64,000 bases of DNA from Roseovarius sp. UBA6217 (GTDB lineage Bacteria; Pseudomonadota; Alphaproteobacteria; Rhodobacterales; Rhodobacteraceae). Shown one piece after another: positions 4,835-52,413 of this stretch. The stretch lies in assembly GCA_002421985.1 (NCBI GenBank), contig DISF01000043.1:4462-68461 (forward strand), read 5' to 3'. The position numbers and the translations under genes were made by a program. Positions within the stretch are counted from its first letter, which is position 1; each line of letters begins with the position of its first letter. The notes beneath the pieces are model-generated. The model saw only the letters and a program-made list of their open reading frames with translations, ran no database searches and had not been told where the DNA came from.

Positions 4835-4909
4835 GCGGGCGTAGCTCAGGGGTAGAGCATTACCTTGCCAAGGTAAGGGTCGAGAGTTCGAATCTCTTCG
4901 CCCGCTCCA
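4835..4909 (+). tRNA. tRNA-Gly (anticodon GCC)
   Basis: Cloverleaf GCGGGCG/CGCCCGC acceptor, TTACC-TTGCCAA-GGTAA anticodon arm, TTCGAAT T-loop, encoded CCA. Confidence 0.97.
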
Positions 4910-16340: not shown

Positions 16341-18854
<2,514 letters not shown>

Positions 18855-24369: not shown

Positions 24370-24453
24370 TGGTGCGGGTGGTCGGACTCGAACCGACACT
24401 CCTTGCGGAAAGGGTGTTTGAGACCCTCGCGTCTACCATTCCGCCACACCCGC
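24370..24453 (-). tRNA. tRNA-Leu (anticodon CAA)
   Basis: Minus strand GCGGGTG acceptor, AGGGT-CTCAAAC-ACCCT anticodon arm, long variable arm, TTCGAGT T-loop, CCA. Confidence 0.93.
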
Positions 24454-32957: not shown

Positions 32958-33259
32958 GGCTCGATCCTTTCGCTCTGCCTGGGTCGGGGGCGGTGGTGCC
33001 CCCCCTGATAGGACCGACTATCGTGCAAACCGCGCGCGGGTGCAAACGGGTTCCCGCTGCGCCTGCCCGGTCGATCTCTTGCGCCAGAAGGACCAGCCCC
33101 GCGCCGTCGTCCCGCGCCGTCGGGCGCAGCGGGGCGGCGGTCTTGAAGCGGTGATGCGGCTCCGCCCGAGCATTGCCGAGCTGTGCCACATATCATCCAG
33201 TGCAACCGCTGCGACAACGGGATAACGTTGGTGGCCTGTTGCGGACGATGTCATCTTGG

Positions 33260-33303
33260 CCCCGCGCGGCTCAGCGCATCCTATCGACAGTCCCCAAAAG
33301 GCC
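33260..33303 (-). repeat. Interspersed repeat core, copy immediately after ribD stop
   Basis: Minus strand ggcct-N11-tcgataggatgcgctgagccgcgcgg; 24/26 nt identical to 41665-41690. Confidence 0.65.
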
Positions 33304-33314
33304 CCGCCACATCA

Positions 33315-34412
33315 TCACCCCGCCCGCGCCCAGCGGTGCATCACGTCGCCGCCAACGGCCCGCGTCTCGATGAGGTCGAACCGCGCGGCCTCGTCGAGCC
33401 GCGACAGGCCCAGCGCGCCCAGACCCGGCAGCCCCTCGGCCCCGATGGCAAGCCCGGCGGTAAAGCCCACAAGCTCGTCCACCAGCCCCGCCCCCACGAG
33501 CGAGGCCGCGAGCGCGCCGCCGCCCTCGCAAAAGACCCGCGTCAGCCCCGCCGCGCCCAGCGCGCGCAGCATCGCGCCCGCATCCACCTGCCCCGCCACC
33601 ACCGCGCAGGGCAAGAGCCGCGCGCCAAGGCCGCGCCACGCCTCGACAAGCGCCCGATCAGGCCCGTCACCGTGGCAGAGCCAGAGCGGCACCTCGCGCG
33701 CGCTGCGTGCAAGCTGCGACATCAGCGGCAGATCGAGCCTGCGCGACACCACCACGCGCACCGGCTGGCGCGCCACGCCCATGCCGCGCACGGTCAGCAT
33801 CGGATCATCGGCGCGCGCCGTGCCCGCGCCCACCATCACCGCGTCATGGCGCGCGCGCATGGCATGGACCGTGCGCCGCGCCTCCGGCCCGGTGATCCAC
33901 TGGCTATGCCCCGAGGCGGTGGCGATGCGACCGTCGAAACTCGACGCGAGTTTCAGCGTGACAAAGGGCCGGCCCAGCTCGTTGCGCATGAGAAACCCGG
34001 CGTGATCGCGGGCCGCCTCATCGGCCAGAACACCGGTCGTGACCGCGATGCCCGCCGCGCGCAGCATCTCGAAACCGCGCCCCGAGACGCGCGGATCGGT
34101 ATCGTCGAACGGGGCCACGACCCGCGCCACCCCCGCCGCGATCAACGCCTCGGCACAGGGCGGCGTGGCACCGTGATGCGCGCAAGGCTCGAGCGTGACA
34201 TAGGCGGTCGCCCCGCGCGCCAGCGCCCCGGCCTGCGCCAGCGCCTGTGGCTCGGCATGGGGCCGCCCGCCGGGGGCGGTGCAGCCGCGCCCGACGATGC
34301 GCCCGCCCTGCACGATGACACAGCCCACTGCGGGGTTGGGCGCGCATTGCCCCATGCCCCGCCGCCCAAGCGACAGCGCCAACGCCATGAAACGGCGGTC
34401 GGCCCCGGTCAT
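33315..34412 (-). CDS. ribD: Riboflavin biosynthesis bifunctional deaminase/reductase
   Basis: PNPAVG, HAE, TLEPCAH..TPPC, SFDGRIA, VFCEGG. Confidence 0.96.
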   Translation of the reverse strand: MTGADRRFMALALSLGRRGMGQCAPNPAVGCVIVQGGRIVGRGCTAPGGRPHAEPQALAQAGALARGATAYVTLEPCAHHGATPPCAEALIAAGVARVVAPFDDTDPRVSGRGFEMLRAAGIAVTTGVLADEAARDHAGFLMRNELGRPFVTLKLASSFDGRIATASGHSQWITGPEARRTVHAMRARHDAVMVGAGTARADDPMLTVRGMGVARQPVRVVVSRRLDLPLMSQLARSAREVPLWLCHGDGPDRALVEAWRGLGARLLPCAVVAGQVDAGAMLRALGAAGLTRVFCEGGGALAASLVGAGLVDELVGFTAGLAIGAEGLPGLGALGLSRLDEAARFDLIETRAVGGDVMHRWARAG

Positions 34413-40597: not shown

Positions 40598-41644
40598 ATG
40601 GCAACCGTAACCCTCGACAACATCCGCAAGAGCTTTGGCACCGACGAGGTCATCAAGGGCGTCTCGCTCGACGTGGCGGATGGCGAATTCATCGTCATCG
40701 TCGGCCCTTCGGGCTGTGGCAAATCCACCCTTCTGCGCATGGTCGCGGGGCTGGAGACGATCACGGCAGGCGAATTGCGCATAGGCGGCACCCGCGCCAA
40801 CGAGCGCGAGCCGATGGACCGCGACATCGCCATGGTGTTCCAGAATTACGCGCTCTACCCGCATATGAGTGTGGCGCAGAACATGGGCTATGGGCTGCGG
40901 ATCAAGGGCCTGCCCAAGGCGGAGGTCGCCGCCAAGGTGCGCGCTGCGGCAGAGCTTTTGCAACTGTCGGAGCTGCTGGAGCGCAAGCCCCGGCAGCTTT
41001 CGGGCGGGCAGCGGCAGCGCGTCGCCATGGGCCGCGCCATCGTGCGTGAACCCAAGGTGTTTCTCTTTGACGAGCCGCTATCGAATCTCGATGCCAAGCT
41101 GCGCGTGCAGATGCGACTTGAGATTCGCGAGTTGCAGGCCAAGCTGGGGATCACCGCGCTTTACGTGACCCACGATCAGGTCGAGGCGATGACCATGGCC
41201 GACCGGATGATCGTGATGAATGAAGGCCGCGCCGAACAGATCGGCACGCCTCTGGATGTCTACGAGCGCCCCGCGAGCCTTTTTGCCGCGCAGTTCATCG
41301 GCAGCCCGTCGATGAACGTGATCGAGGCCGAGGGGCGCGAGGACGGGATGCATGTCGGGGATATGCTGCTGCCCAACCCGACCGGCGCGCGCGGCCCGGT
41401 CATGCTCGGGCTGCGCCCCGAGCATCTTGTGCCCGCGCCCGACGGCCCGCTTGCTTTGCGGGTCTTGCTGGCAGAGCCATTGGGAGCCAATACGCTCTTG
41501 CATGGAATGCTTGCGGGCGGCCAGAACTTTACCGCAAGCCTGCCCGGCGTGCACACCACTGGCGGGGCCGAGGTGCTGCACCTGGGCATTGCACCGGAGA
41601 AGATGCACGTTTTTGACAAGCAAACCGGGCGGCGGCTGGGGTGA
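40598..41644 (+). CDS. ugpC: G3P ABC transporter ATP-binding protein
   Basis: [30 protein letters not shown]. Confidence 0.9.
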
Positions 41645-41648
41645 TCGT

Positions 41649-41850
41649 GGTCTGTTATTATCATTCGACATGATGCGCTGAGCCGCGCGGTGCCCGACCG
41701 CGGGTGGGCGCTGCAACGGTTGTGGAATGCGTTTTATGGTGCCGAATACTTGAGCGATTGTGCGGATTGCACCGTAGCAAAAGCGCCCGCCCGTCCGGGC
41801 GGTCGGGCGCTCGCGCGGCGGTGCCTGCGGCACATTGATTCCGCGCGGGG
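41649..41850 (+). repeat. Interspersed repeat, full copy 1 (core + 138-bp inverted-repeat-bounded unit + short hairpin)
   Basis: 41682-41701 is the reverse complement of 41799-41819 (1 indel, 1 mismatch); 41729-41819 matches 49203-49293 at 86/91 nt. Confidence 0.85.
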
Positions 41851-41878
41851 AAGGATTGCGAACGCCCCCCCGCCCCGC

Positions 41879-42274
41879 CTATGCGCCCGTCTCACCCTCT
41901 GCCTCGGCCTCGATCCGGGCGCGCTCGGCATCGCTTTCATAGCTGGCCCAGGGCCGCGCGCCGCCGGTGGGCGGCAGGTCTTCGGGCTTGTGGAGCAGGT
42001 GCAGATGCGTCTTGGCAATGAAATGCCCGGTAATCGGCGCGGTGAGGAACAGAAACAACGTGATCATCAACTCGTGAAACGAAAACTGCCCGACGATGAA
42101 ATAGAAATACAGCATCGACGCGATCAGCGCGCCGCCCACCCCCAGCGTGGTCGCCTTGGTGGGCGCGTGCAGCCGCATCATCGGATCGGGCAGCTTGATA
42201 AGGCCAAAAGAGCCGACCAGCCCGAACACGCCGCTGATGACAAGACAGGCGGAAATCGCGATCTCGGCAAGCAT
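41879..42274 (-). CDS. phaG: Pha/Mrp antiporter subunit G
   Basis: RLHAPTKATTLG, FLTAPI. Confidence 0.92.
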   Translation of the reverse strand: MLAEIAISACLVISGVFGLVGSFGLIKLPDPMMRLHAPTKATTLGVGGALIASMLYFYFIVGQFSFHELMITLFLFLTAPITGHFIAKTHLHLLHKPEDLPPTGGARPWASYESDAERARIEAEAEGETGA

Positions 42275-48446: not shown

Positions 48447-48591
48447 GGCGGTCCTTTCTCCTGACGGCTGAACGCAAACTGCGGCGCGTCCCGGCAGAGG
48501 TCAAGGCGCGGGAGACGCCTCGACGCGGCGAGCCTTGTCTTCCCCCGGCTGATCGCGGGGGCCGACGGCGTGGCGGTCTCGGTGCTGCGGC

Positions 48592-49038: not shown

Positions 49039-49118
49039 GGGGCGGCTCCGGGCTGCATGGGGGCGCAATCGCGCTTGGCCTACCTTCCACGCGGCTGCGA
49101 GCGGTGCAAGCCCCCTGA

Positions 49119-49375
49119 CCAACCAGCCCGACCCGTCGCCGATGACGTGCAGAGCCGCGCGAGTGCCCGACCGCGGGTGGGCGCGGCATCGGTTGTGGGC
49201 TGGCGTTTTATGGTGCCAAATACTTTGACGATTGTGCGGATTGCACCGTTGCAAAAGCGCCCGCCCGTCCGGGCGGTCGGGCGCTCGCGCGGCGGCGCGC
49301 AAGCGCGCCTTGTTCCGCGCGGGGGACAGGAAGGCGACGGTCCGCTTCGGGCTGCACTGCCAACCAGCCCGACCC
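49119..49375 (+). repeat. Interspersed repeat, full copy 2, enclosed by 16-bp direct repeats
   Basis: 21-bp inverted repeats 49154-49174 / 49273-49293 (1 mismatch); CCAACCAGCCCGACCC at 49119-49134 and 49360-49375. Confidence 0.85.
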
Positions 49376-49464
49376 ACTGCCCCCCCAAGCGAGGGGTTGA
49401 CCCCGCGCGCCGGGTTGCCGACATGATGCCCGCAAACGCCGCGCCATAATCAAGGAGAGGCTTG

Positions 49465-52253: not shown

Positions 52254-52304
52254 TATTGCGGCGTCAGGGGGCGGCTGGGGGGAATGCCGCCATTCGCTTC
52301 CTGC

Positions 52305-52348
52305 CACCGCGCGGCTCATCGCATCACATCGACTATTCGCTCAAGACC
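52305..52348 (-). repeat. Interspersed repeat core, copy downstream of FG-GAP gene
   Basis: Ungapped 32/44 match to 41649-41692 (25/28 in the 3' part). Confidence 0.65.
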
Positions 52349-52413
52349 AACTCACACCCCACAAACACAGCCCCGCGACCACGCCCGGCAAAGCATCGCA
52401 ACCCAACCCCGCC

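Follow-up and report, generated by a model that had tools for sequence, protein, structure and literature searches.

A composite repeat between ugpC and mnhG

The window analysed here, a stretch of 64,000 nucleotides (nt) from Roseovarius sp. UBA6217 (contig DISF01000043.1), holds two copies of a structured intergenic repeat of about 165 nt, at 41682-41847 and 49154-49321, which we call the unit. Copy 1 lies between the stop codons of ugpC (41642-41644) and mnhG (41879, minus strand). Together with a second repeat in which it is embedded, here called the carrier, it fully occupies this spacer, and the left half of the carrier starts 5 nt beyond the ugpC stop codon. The original prediction had described a 138-nt unit bounded by inverted arms at this site. 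When the window was searched with the arm pattern GCGGTCGGGCRC(N)CGCGCGGC, four matches were obtained, two per copy and on opposite strands, compared to 0.00 expected from shuffled sequences, and the inverted arms were thus placed as claimed. The recurrence proposed at 49154-49293 was also confirmed, as the two copies have a 96-nt block in common at 94% identity and are 87.5% identical across 184 nt. The coordinates of all parts are given in Table 1.

The anatomy of the unit and the pairing counts below were obtained from an alignment of 36 copies from many genomes. The conserved unit exceeds 138 nt and is asymmetric. A long imperfect hairpin is followed by a short 3' hairpin that co-varies, and TTGATT-CCGCGCG completes the unit. 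The order of its segments is X, left arm, a centre of ~70 nt, right arm with a 5-6-nt bulge, X', short hairpin, TTGATT and again X, where X stands for CCGCGC(G) and X' for the complementary CGCGCGG. In copy 1 the left member of this terminal direct repeat is the CCGCGCG at 41683-41689 within the left arm, and the CCGCGCG at the end of the tail repeats it and is complementary to the end of the right arm. The arms are the conserved and highly repeated part of the unit, and each arm is itself a small imperfect palindrome. The short hairpin that had been noticed just outside the 138 nt was recovered in both copies; its sequence differs between them, and TTG(A)TTCCGCGCGGGG comes after it. Conservation is lowest in the centre, which is also the part most often deleted; its conserved motifs in copy 1 are TTTATGG (41733-41739), a GCCAAATAC-like motif, and GCAAAAGC adjoining the right arm. 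A coding role of the ATG in TTTATGG was rejected because frame and length vary between copies when the alignment is read, and readings of the centre as a sigma-54, IHF, CtrA or DnaA-box site were dropped by eye because their spacing or conservation did not fit.

The second conserved sequence flanks most copies of the unit, with GGCCTGGAG..CGTTCGATATGATGCGATGAG to the left and GGGGCAGGAGGCGAATGGCAGC..CAGGCC to the right. This carrier is ~70 nt long, reads GGCCTG...CCGCGCGG...CAGGCC and has its own inverted ends, GGCCTG and CAGGCC. In copies 1 and 2 the unit is placed exactly at the carrier centre, CCGCGCGG. A profile of the joined flanks found the uninterrupted carrier in the window only at 33226-33305 and 52281-52350. 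At these places two truncated copies of the unit had been proposed on the minus strand. The match to the flank was recovered (30 nt at 90% identity in 33258-33303 and 43 nt at 77% in 52290-52348), but both sites turned out to be complete copies of the carrier with none of the 138-nt unit inside. Instead of four copies of one family, the window contains two copies of the unit and two carriers without a unit. The carrier at 33.2 kb has convergent genes on its two sides, among them ribD (33315-34412, minus strand), and at ≥85% identity the source metagenomes, which are of oil-field and hydrocarbon origin, contain it as a single copy. This carrier folds weakly (z -1 to -1.9) and the copy at 52.3 kb gave no significant fold, so the idea of the carrier as a strong palindrome was rejected. 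The left half of the carrier often holds ATGATGCG(C/A)TGA, a mini-open reading frame of three codons (M-M-R-stop) directly before CCGCGCG, which was seen at 41670-41681, at 33268-33279 and 52311-52322 on the minus strand and at many loci outside the window, and which may be due to chance.

Units without a recognisable carrier exist, for example at loci L060, L028, L076 and L107 and among plasmid copies. The flank alignment showed CCGCGC as a constant junction on both sides of the unit in all copies. The ends of the unit are thus a direct repeat of CCGCGC, and within that repeat they are not inverted: with AGTGCCC... at the 5' end and ...CCTTGATT at the 3' end, the unit is without terminal inverted repeats. 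No consistent target-site duplication around the carrier was visible in the same alignment, and the sole candidate, of 7 nt, is at the block that contains copy 2.

Table 1. Parts of the two unit copies, carriers and associated repeats (window positions unless a locus is named)
Feature	Position	Strand	Basis or remark
Arm-pattern matches	41682-41701(-), 41799-41819(+), 49154-49174(-), 49273-49293(+)		pattern search of window
Carrier left half at copy 1 (GGTCTG...ATGATGCGCTGAG)	41649-41682	+	nhmmer profile of joined flanks, flank alignment
Copy 1 left arm (GCCGCGCG-GTGCCCGACCG-CGGGTGGGCGC)	41682-41711	+	pattern search, pairing counts
Copy 1 centre (apical region)	41712-41782	+	copy alignments
Copy 1 right arm (GCGCCCGCCCG, bulge TCCGGG at 41794-41799, CGGTCGGGCGC, T, CGCGCGGC)	41783-41819	+	
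Copy 1 short 3' hairpin (GGTGCC-TGC-GGCAC(A))	41820-41834	+	compensatory changes
Copy 1 tail TTGATT and terminal CCGCGCG	41835-41847	+	flank alignment, pairing counts
Degenerate carrier right half at copy 1 (GGGGAAGGATTGCGAACGCC...)	41848-41875	+	flank alignment, nhmmer profile
Copy 2 of the unit	49154-49321	+	covariance model 164.4 bits, alignment
Copy 2 left arm	49154-49184		
Copy 2 right arm	49257-49293		
Copy 2 short hairpin (GGCGCGC-AA-GCGCGCC)	49294-49309		
Copy 2 tail TTGTT-CCGCGCG	49310-49321		
Copy-2 block (carrier, unit and extra sequence)	49118-49379	+	absent from orthologous L114:20019-20090
16-nt direct repeat CCAACCAGCCCGACCC, first copy (left edge of block)	49119-49134	+	
16-nt direct repeat, second copy (near right edge)	49360-49375	+	
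Carrier without unit (GGCCT...GATGCGCTGAG-CCGCGCGG-GGCCAAG...CAGGCC)	33233-33303	-	model positions 8-89, E 3.8e-08
Second carrier without unit, more degenerate	52282-52348	-	profile E 1.8e-07
Copies at the cimA site	L110:999-1173, L074:864-1035, L016:6324-6539, L045:7882-8000		

Folding and covariation of the unit

Both window copies were predicted to fold as RNA into one long hairpin, with -104.2 kcal/mol for copy 1 (z -2.96) and -119.1 kcal/mol for copy 2 (z -4.31). Folded as single-stranded DNA (ssDNA), the 138-nt unit gave z -5.2 on the plus strand and z -3.0 on the minus strand, and the right arm alone self-folds at -17.6 kcal/mol. The arms pair across 30 positions. In the long stem 95.9% of the cells were paired, and 11 pairs carried double changes, with both sides changed in 46 cells, values that were reached by none of 500 shuffles. 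Conservation of structure in the short 3' hairpin had been suggested from the two window copies, and across the 36 copies it was borne out by compensatory double changes in three of five counted pairs (26 cells) and at least nine different stem sequences. An alternative helix, formed by X' and the 3' X, encloses the short hairpin and is 98% paired. In three Pseudosulfitobacter copies one position had changed together in X, X' and the 3' X (C(A)GGGC, GCCCGG and CCGGGC, respectively), which is thin evidence from a single lineage, and the pairing partner of the same arm end in Phaeobacter is a downstream CCGGGCAG, with TTTCC after it. A hairpin presenting the conserved TTTATG was rejected, as 62.8% of its cells were paired, no better than in shuffles; this motif is conserved as sequence and not as structure.

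The covariation shows that the fold matters. It fails to separate selection on RNA from selection on DNA, because the same would be expected of a palindrome on which mobility depends. Covariation had been put forward as a check on a structured RNA; it was found to be strong, but as a test for RNA it lost its value.

Distribution, variants and turnover

A family scan with the arm pattern, using one genome per species, gave at least 113 matching stretches. Among those listed were at least ~45 true loci (full, truncated or short copies) in five genera, Roseovarius, Seohaeicola, Actibacterium, Sediminimonas and Salinihabitans, and the other listed arm matches were chance matches in other G+C-rich phyla. 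The Roseovarius members with copies were MBR-78, MBR-6, tolerans, 217, nitratireducens, ramblicola, A-2, autotrophicus and metagenome-assembled genomes (MAGs), with at least nine loci among the matches listed for Roseovarius sp. MBR-78. In a plasmid collection the arm type was also found in seven further genera. Pseudosulfitobacter plasmids had long forms, and plasmids of Leisingera, Phaeobacter and Tritonibacter had short forms of ~85 nt consisting of the arms and a small loop; for Sulfitobacter, Ruegeria and Paroceanicella these are pattern matches only. Some plasmid records contained up to five copies. The further genomic copies that the original prediction had called for are thus there, tens per genome and in many genera. 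In two source metagenomes the depth relative to unique flank was ~40x for the left arm, ~70x for the right arm and ~7x for the centre. The UgpC protein of the window matches a JGI metagenome protein at 95% identity and those of Roseovarius species at 84-87%. The unit had no match in the phage collection, and a literature search on Roseovarius, Rhodobacteraceae and roseobacters found no description of such a repeat.

The copies vary in a modular way. Short forms without the centre were found at L092 (78 nt) and L042 (128 nt), and solo 3' modules or right halves at L098, L064 and L107. Subfamilies with wholly different arm sequences have nevertheless fully compensated stems (L013:225-394 and L114:11085-11258). 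Foreign mini-palindromes were present at fixed points of the right arm in L016:6324-6539, L063:1761-1981, L065:3724-3967 and L010:7549-7747. These are ~48 nt (GTCACGCCGGAGGCGTGCCGAT...GCGCACCTTTGGTGCGAC) or ~30 nt (GTCATGCCGGAGGCATGCCTTCGGCATGAC) long, occur in several genomes and form a third layer of nesting. Draft contigs that start or end inside the unit were seen at L041, L050, L051, L052, L054, L089 and L100. The repeat often causes assemblies of Roseovarius genomes and MAGs to break, and a defined model explains many of these breaks (contigs L041, L050-L052 and L089 end inside copies).

Nearly all copies examined (38 of 39) are intergenic, and the exception is copy 2 of the window, which was flagged inside a long predicted open reading frame (ORF). 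At 22 sites genes were called on both sides, and these were convergent in 12 cases, divergent in two, and co-directional in the sense orientation in five and in the antisense orientation in three, so that a strand bias was absent from co-directional regions (5 vs 3). This context is the usual one for repetitive extragenic palindromic (REP) sequences and miniature inverted-repeat transposable elements (MITEs), which are tolerated at 3' ends and excluded from promoter regions, without strand preference. One copy lies inside the Phaeobacter rfbCBDA operon. In L129:1268-1453, from the Phaeobacter inhibens plasmid pP66_f, an annotated 61-aa 'hypothetical protein' has its start within the repeat, in the interval from rfbB to rfbD. 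The element has probably given rise to a spurious call here, and a defined model removes spurious ORF calls of this kind.

A comparison of orthologous sites revealed turnover. The site of copy 2 is empty in L114, a relative that is ~92% identical across 12 kb, and here the window has 262 nt more (49118-49379). This block is flanked by CCCCCTG and CCCACTG, and the empty site has a single CCCCCTG. The 16-nt direct repeat at the block is exact, with two matches in the window compared to 0.10 expected; it is made up of 5 nt of flank and the first 11 nt of the left end of the carrier, and it is missing at the empty site. An indel adjoins the site of copy 2: between rppH and the next gene L114 has ~1.65 kb with a GST gene and an EamA transporter gene (L114:17892-19538), and in its place the window has ~110 nt (48458-48567). 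At the ugpC-mnhG site, two relatives that are ~88% identical have only the carrier, inverted in one and decayed in the other, and L114, the closest relative, has the carrier with a unit of another subfamily that is 52% identical in the centre. Copy 1 of the window, in contrast, shares 92% identity with a copy that Roseovarius sp. MBR-78 has at an unrelated locus. At an orthologous convergent site, MBR-78 and R. tolerans hold the whole composite in opposite orientations, with 55% identity in the centre.

Upstream of a cimA/leuA-like gene (LYLYDTTLRDGQQ) a copy was found at the same place in four genomes, and in three species it lies 7-8 nt before the start of the gene. Two of the species keep a copy that is 91% identical, consistent with vertical descent. 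The copy of the third species, which was outside the identity matrix, is by eye closer to the other copies of its own genome. In L074 and L016 a terminal CCGCGCGGGG lies 7-8 nt before the ATG and could supply the ribosome-binding site. Taken together, these sites show gain or loss, replacement and inversion at fixed places, and lineages of the repeat that are common to several species.

Nature of the element

The unit is a multi-copy, modular and structured element with a constant CCGCGC junction, a frequent placement at the carrier centre and turnover between close relatives. The family is a real and previously undescribed member of a familiar class of palindromic repeats and not a new kind of system, and the earlier view of an interspersed, structured, non-coding repeat of the kind of REPs, MITEs or bacterial interspersed mosaic elements (BIMEs) was supported. 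More specifically, we consider it probable, at roughly 60%, that the unit belongs to the REP/REPIN/BIME type, as a palindromic, non-autonomous intergenic repeat specific to Roseobacteraceae. Copies are gained, lost and replaced at the 3' ends of genes, often exactly at CCGCGCGG of the second and older repeat, the carrier. According to this model, an enzyme acting in trans and encoded once elsewhere in the genome would recognise the arms, likely in the form of folded single strands, and insertion may be directed to CCGCGC. The best guess for the enzyme would be a Y1 transposase like the REP-associated tyrosine transposases (RAYTs). The arms, each of them a small palindrome, are conserved best and repeated most, and they are the probable recognition sites. 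The asymmetric ends and the lack of both terminal inverted repeats and variable duplications argue against cut-and-paste by a DDE enzyme. These end features would fit the chemistry of a hairpin-recognising Y1 enzyme (RAYT or IS200/IS605-type) or a site-specific one (IS110-type). As a side-effect, the element may act as a two-way terminator or as a stabiliser of mRNA 3' ends, which would aid its persistence. From the side of each convergent gene its transcript would fold into a very stable hairpin; on the minus strand the right-arm hairpin would be followed by UUUUGC, and on the plus strand the short hairpin would be followed by UUGAUU.

Several observations weigh against a REP-like mobile palindrome. 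No transposase or recombinase was found near the copies, in agreement with the earlier remark on the window, and the ORF families beside the copies included no recurrent gene beyond orthologous neighbours. The ORFs between paired copies are housekeeping genes for a cyclase, a DUF1523 protein, an adenine deaminase and an aminotransferase. A tblastn search with E. coli RayT against the window and all collected loci (1.0 Mb) gave nothing better than E = 1.1. Canonical REPs have a GT[AG]G head, but neither arm shows a conserved GTAG or GTGG, and the arms read GCCGCGCG(A)G[T/G/C]GCCCGACCG... instead. The orientation of copies relative to local GC skew, a noisy proxy for the direction of replication taken from 8-kb flanks, was positive in 18 cases and negative in 22 (p = 0.64), so insertion into lagging-strand ssDNA is not favoured. 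The context statistics rest on crude gene calls from a GC3 heuristic. The direct repeats could equally result from a deletion of the intervening unit, so the direction of the change, insertion or loss, is proven only for the whole copy-2 block. Finally, the idea of a terminator rests on weak U-tracts: in a terminator scan of the minus strand the right-arm hairpin of copy 1 with CTTTTGCT passed, but copy 2 with CTTTTGCA failed by one T.

The comparison with known systems places the family close to several of them. REP and REPIN elements are mobilised by RAYT (Y1 HUH) transposases in Pseudomonas and E. coli (PMC3116915, PMC3337134). Like these, the unit combines two short, inverted, imperfect palindromes into one long hairpin, is extragenic with tens of copies per genome, has arms that are more conserved than the spacer, has no transposase within the element and persists across related species. 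REPs begin with a conserved GT[AG]G tetranucleotide adjoining the palindrome, which the unit lacks. Further differences from REPs and REPINs are its ~70-nt spacer with conserved motifs, its extra asymmetric 3' module (hairpin, TTGATT and CCGCGC), its nesting in a second repeat and, in the 1.0 Mb searched, the lack of a RAYT hit. The BIMEs of E. coli and the RIMEs of rhizobia are mosaics of palindromic units at operon ends and have been linked to protein binding and transcript stabilisation. The family resembles them in its palindromic units and linker motifs in a fixed order, its long and short variants and its location at operon ends, but it has no sequence relation to them, has one pair of arms rather than arrays and resides in Roseobacteraceae. 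ERIC elements (IRUs) of enterobacteria are imperfect palindromes of ~70-130 nt in transcribed intergenic regions, which are lengthened by ~70-nt insertions at one internal site and shortened by deletions. The insertions at one internal site parallel the arrangement of carrier and unit; unlike in ERIC, to which there is no sequence relation, the inserted unit surpasses the carrier in both abundance and conservation.

Correia elements (NEMIS) of Neisseria carry terminal inverted repeats of 26 nt together with a TA duplication, and these and other bacterial MITEs affect the transcription of neighbouring genes via terminators, promoters and RNase III sites. The unit is likewise small, structured and non-autonomous, but it is without the 26-nt repeats and without the TA duplication. 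The ends of IS200/IS605 elements and their PATE derivatives are asymmetric, with subterminal hairpins, no inverted ends and a constant short target. The form of the unit is compatible with this in its asymmetric ends, its subterminal hairpins and its lack of terminal inverted repeats and of variable duplications. It would also adjoin a constant short target similar to its own 3' end, and an internal segment by the 3' hairpin is complementary to this target. CCGCGC is found on the left flank and at the 3' end, with the hairpin 6 nt from the 3' end, although the left CCGCGCG also belongs to the conserved stem and may not be flank. Unlike in IS200/IS605 and PATE elements, the sequence of the 3' hairpin varies between copies of one genome, copy orientation is unbiased with respect to GC skew, and no TnpA was found. 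With its paired palindromes, its mosaic variants and its insertion into a carrier at one internal site, the family works like REP/REPIN, BIME/RIME and ERIC elements, but at the sequence level it differs from each: a GT[AG]G head and variable duplications are absent, the unit is without terminal inverted repeats, and its sequence resembles none of them.

Among the alternatives, the one that survives best is an RNA element selected by the host, although we regard it as rather unlikely. Here the repeat would be a bidirectional intrinsic terminator and 3'-UTR stabiliser for convergent genes that is spread by recombination, with no dedicated transposase. The preference for convergent and 3'-end sites, the avoidance of divergent regions and the filling of the whole ugpC-mnhG spacer agree with this. 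The right arm of copy 1 is terminator-like on the minus strand, where it self-folds and is followed by CTTTTGC, and GCAAAAGCGCC is conserved, which would place UUUUGC after the minus-strand hairpin. The short hairpin with UUGAUU keeps its pairing through many compensatory changes, and the short form of Phaeobacter ends in a hairpin and then TTTCC. However, the U-tracts are short, copy 2 failed the scan as mentioned, and the plus-strand hairpin with TTGATT does not pass. Contigs with the element were present in a groundwater metatranscriptome, but this evidence is shallow and unstranded and could be DNA carry-over, and metatranscriptomes of the source sample gave no coverage of the element; a search for RNA runs of isolates, among them Roseovarius sp. 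MBR-78, found none. Termination would also be harmful within the rfbCBDA operon and 7-8 nt before a start codon, where copies reside, and the constant CCGCGC junction, the turnover of subfamilies at fixed sites and the nested insertions call for more than function as an explanation.

A less probable reading, which we hold to be doubtful, is that X, X' and X form a built-in guide-target device, in which the folded strand of the element itself would base-pair with the CCGCGC insertion site in the middle of another palindrome, choose it and cut it. The left end CCGCGC would then be the first X, the end of the right arm, GCGCGG, would be X', and the 3'-terminal CCGCGC would be the second X, and a trans-acting HUH enzyme or other recombinase would supply only the chemistry. 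If true, this would be a programmable, enzyme-less hairpin transposon whose two exclusive folds are the donor and target states.

It is quite unlikely that the unit is a classical MITE, that is an internally deleted derivative of a DDE-type insertion sequence (IS) that moves by cut-and-paste via terminal inverted repeats and makes target-site duplications. The inverted ends GGCCTG...CAGGCC of the carrier would agree with a MITE, as would the position of the copy-2 block between CCCCCTG and CCCACTG where the empty site has one CCCCCTG. The unit itself is without inverted repeats at its very ends, though, and it is always bounded by the same CCGCGC and not by variable duplications. In addition, no consistent duplication surrounds the carrier, and no related IS was seen among the genes beside or between copies.

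Transcription of the element from the plus strand, either as trans-acting small RNA genes that form a family or as some other structured non-coding RNA, is equally improbable. The strong covariation of the stem, the conserved motifs in the centre and the covariance model scores, 115-177 bits on the plus strand compared to 20-40 on the reverse strand, speak for such an RNA. So do the two conserved T.G positions, through which alone the plus-strand fold is more stable than the minus-strand fold (-104 vs -88 kcal/mol). However, a scan of copies 1 and 2 for sigma-70-like promoters found none, and an Rfam search of 41600-41900 at E ≤ 10 gave nothing relevant, the best score being 26.8 bits for an unrelated snoRNA with a threshold of 62. 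The structured RNA that had been offered as an alternative thus keeps its covariation but gained no Rfam match and no support from RNA. Mismatches of the G.T type outnumbered A.C mismatches overall (58 vs 14), but without the two fixed T.G columns the counts were 16 vs 14, so these sporadic mismatches are equally frequent and uninformative on RNA-level selection. The orientation to neighbouring genes is unbiased and includes antisense placement, the centre is the part least conserved and most often deleted, and copies are freely truncated, inverted and replaced.

IS110/IS1111 elements are known to insert site-specifically in the centre of palindromic repeats. A stand-alone derivative of an RNA-guided insertion system (IS110/IS1111 with a bridge or seek RNA, or an IS200/IS605 omega-RNA end), in which the guide RNA gene and recombination core were kept and the enzyme gene was lost, would account for the size of ~170 nt, the long hairpin with internal loops, the placement at the centre of another palindromic repeat, the short core common to both junctions and the ends that co-vary with an internal complementary segment, but it is very unlikely, as no DEDD or TnpB gene was seen near copies, complementarity between the centre and the carrier flanks is ≤5 nt by eye, no Rfam or other RNA family matched, and the centre, the would-be guide region, is dispensable in short forms.

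Roseobacters are among the most studied marine bacteria, and no such repeat family was found in the literature search or in Rfam. Gains, losses and replacements at fixed sites provide a marker for strain typing, and the family points to candidate terminators where genes converge. That one palindrome is nested exactly at the centre of another, together with subfamilies that have the same architecture and not the same sequence, makes this a tractable case for studying how REP-like DNA is recognised and moved.

Some further features of the window were recorded. At gathering score, Rfam matched the whole window only at two tRNA genes, at 4835-4906 (plus strand) and 24373-24453 (minus strand). Direct repeats rich in AAG and AAA codons (GGCAAGG..AAAAAGAAGA) at 672-716 and 777-821 look like a lysine-rich repeat inside a coding region. 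A 60-nt direct repeat with 82% identity was found at 18577-18636 and 18778-18837, 201 nt apart, and probably reflects a duplication within one gene or a pair of paralogous domains in it.

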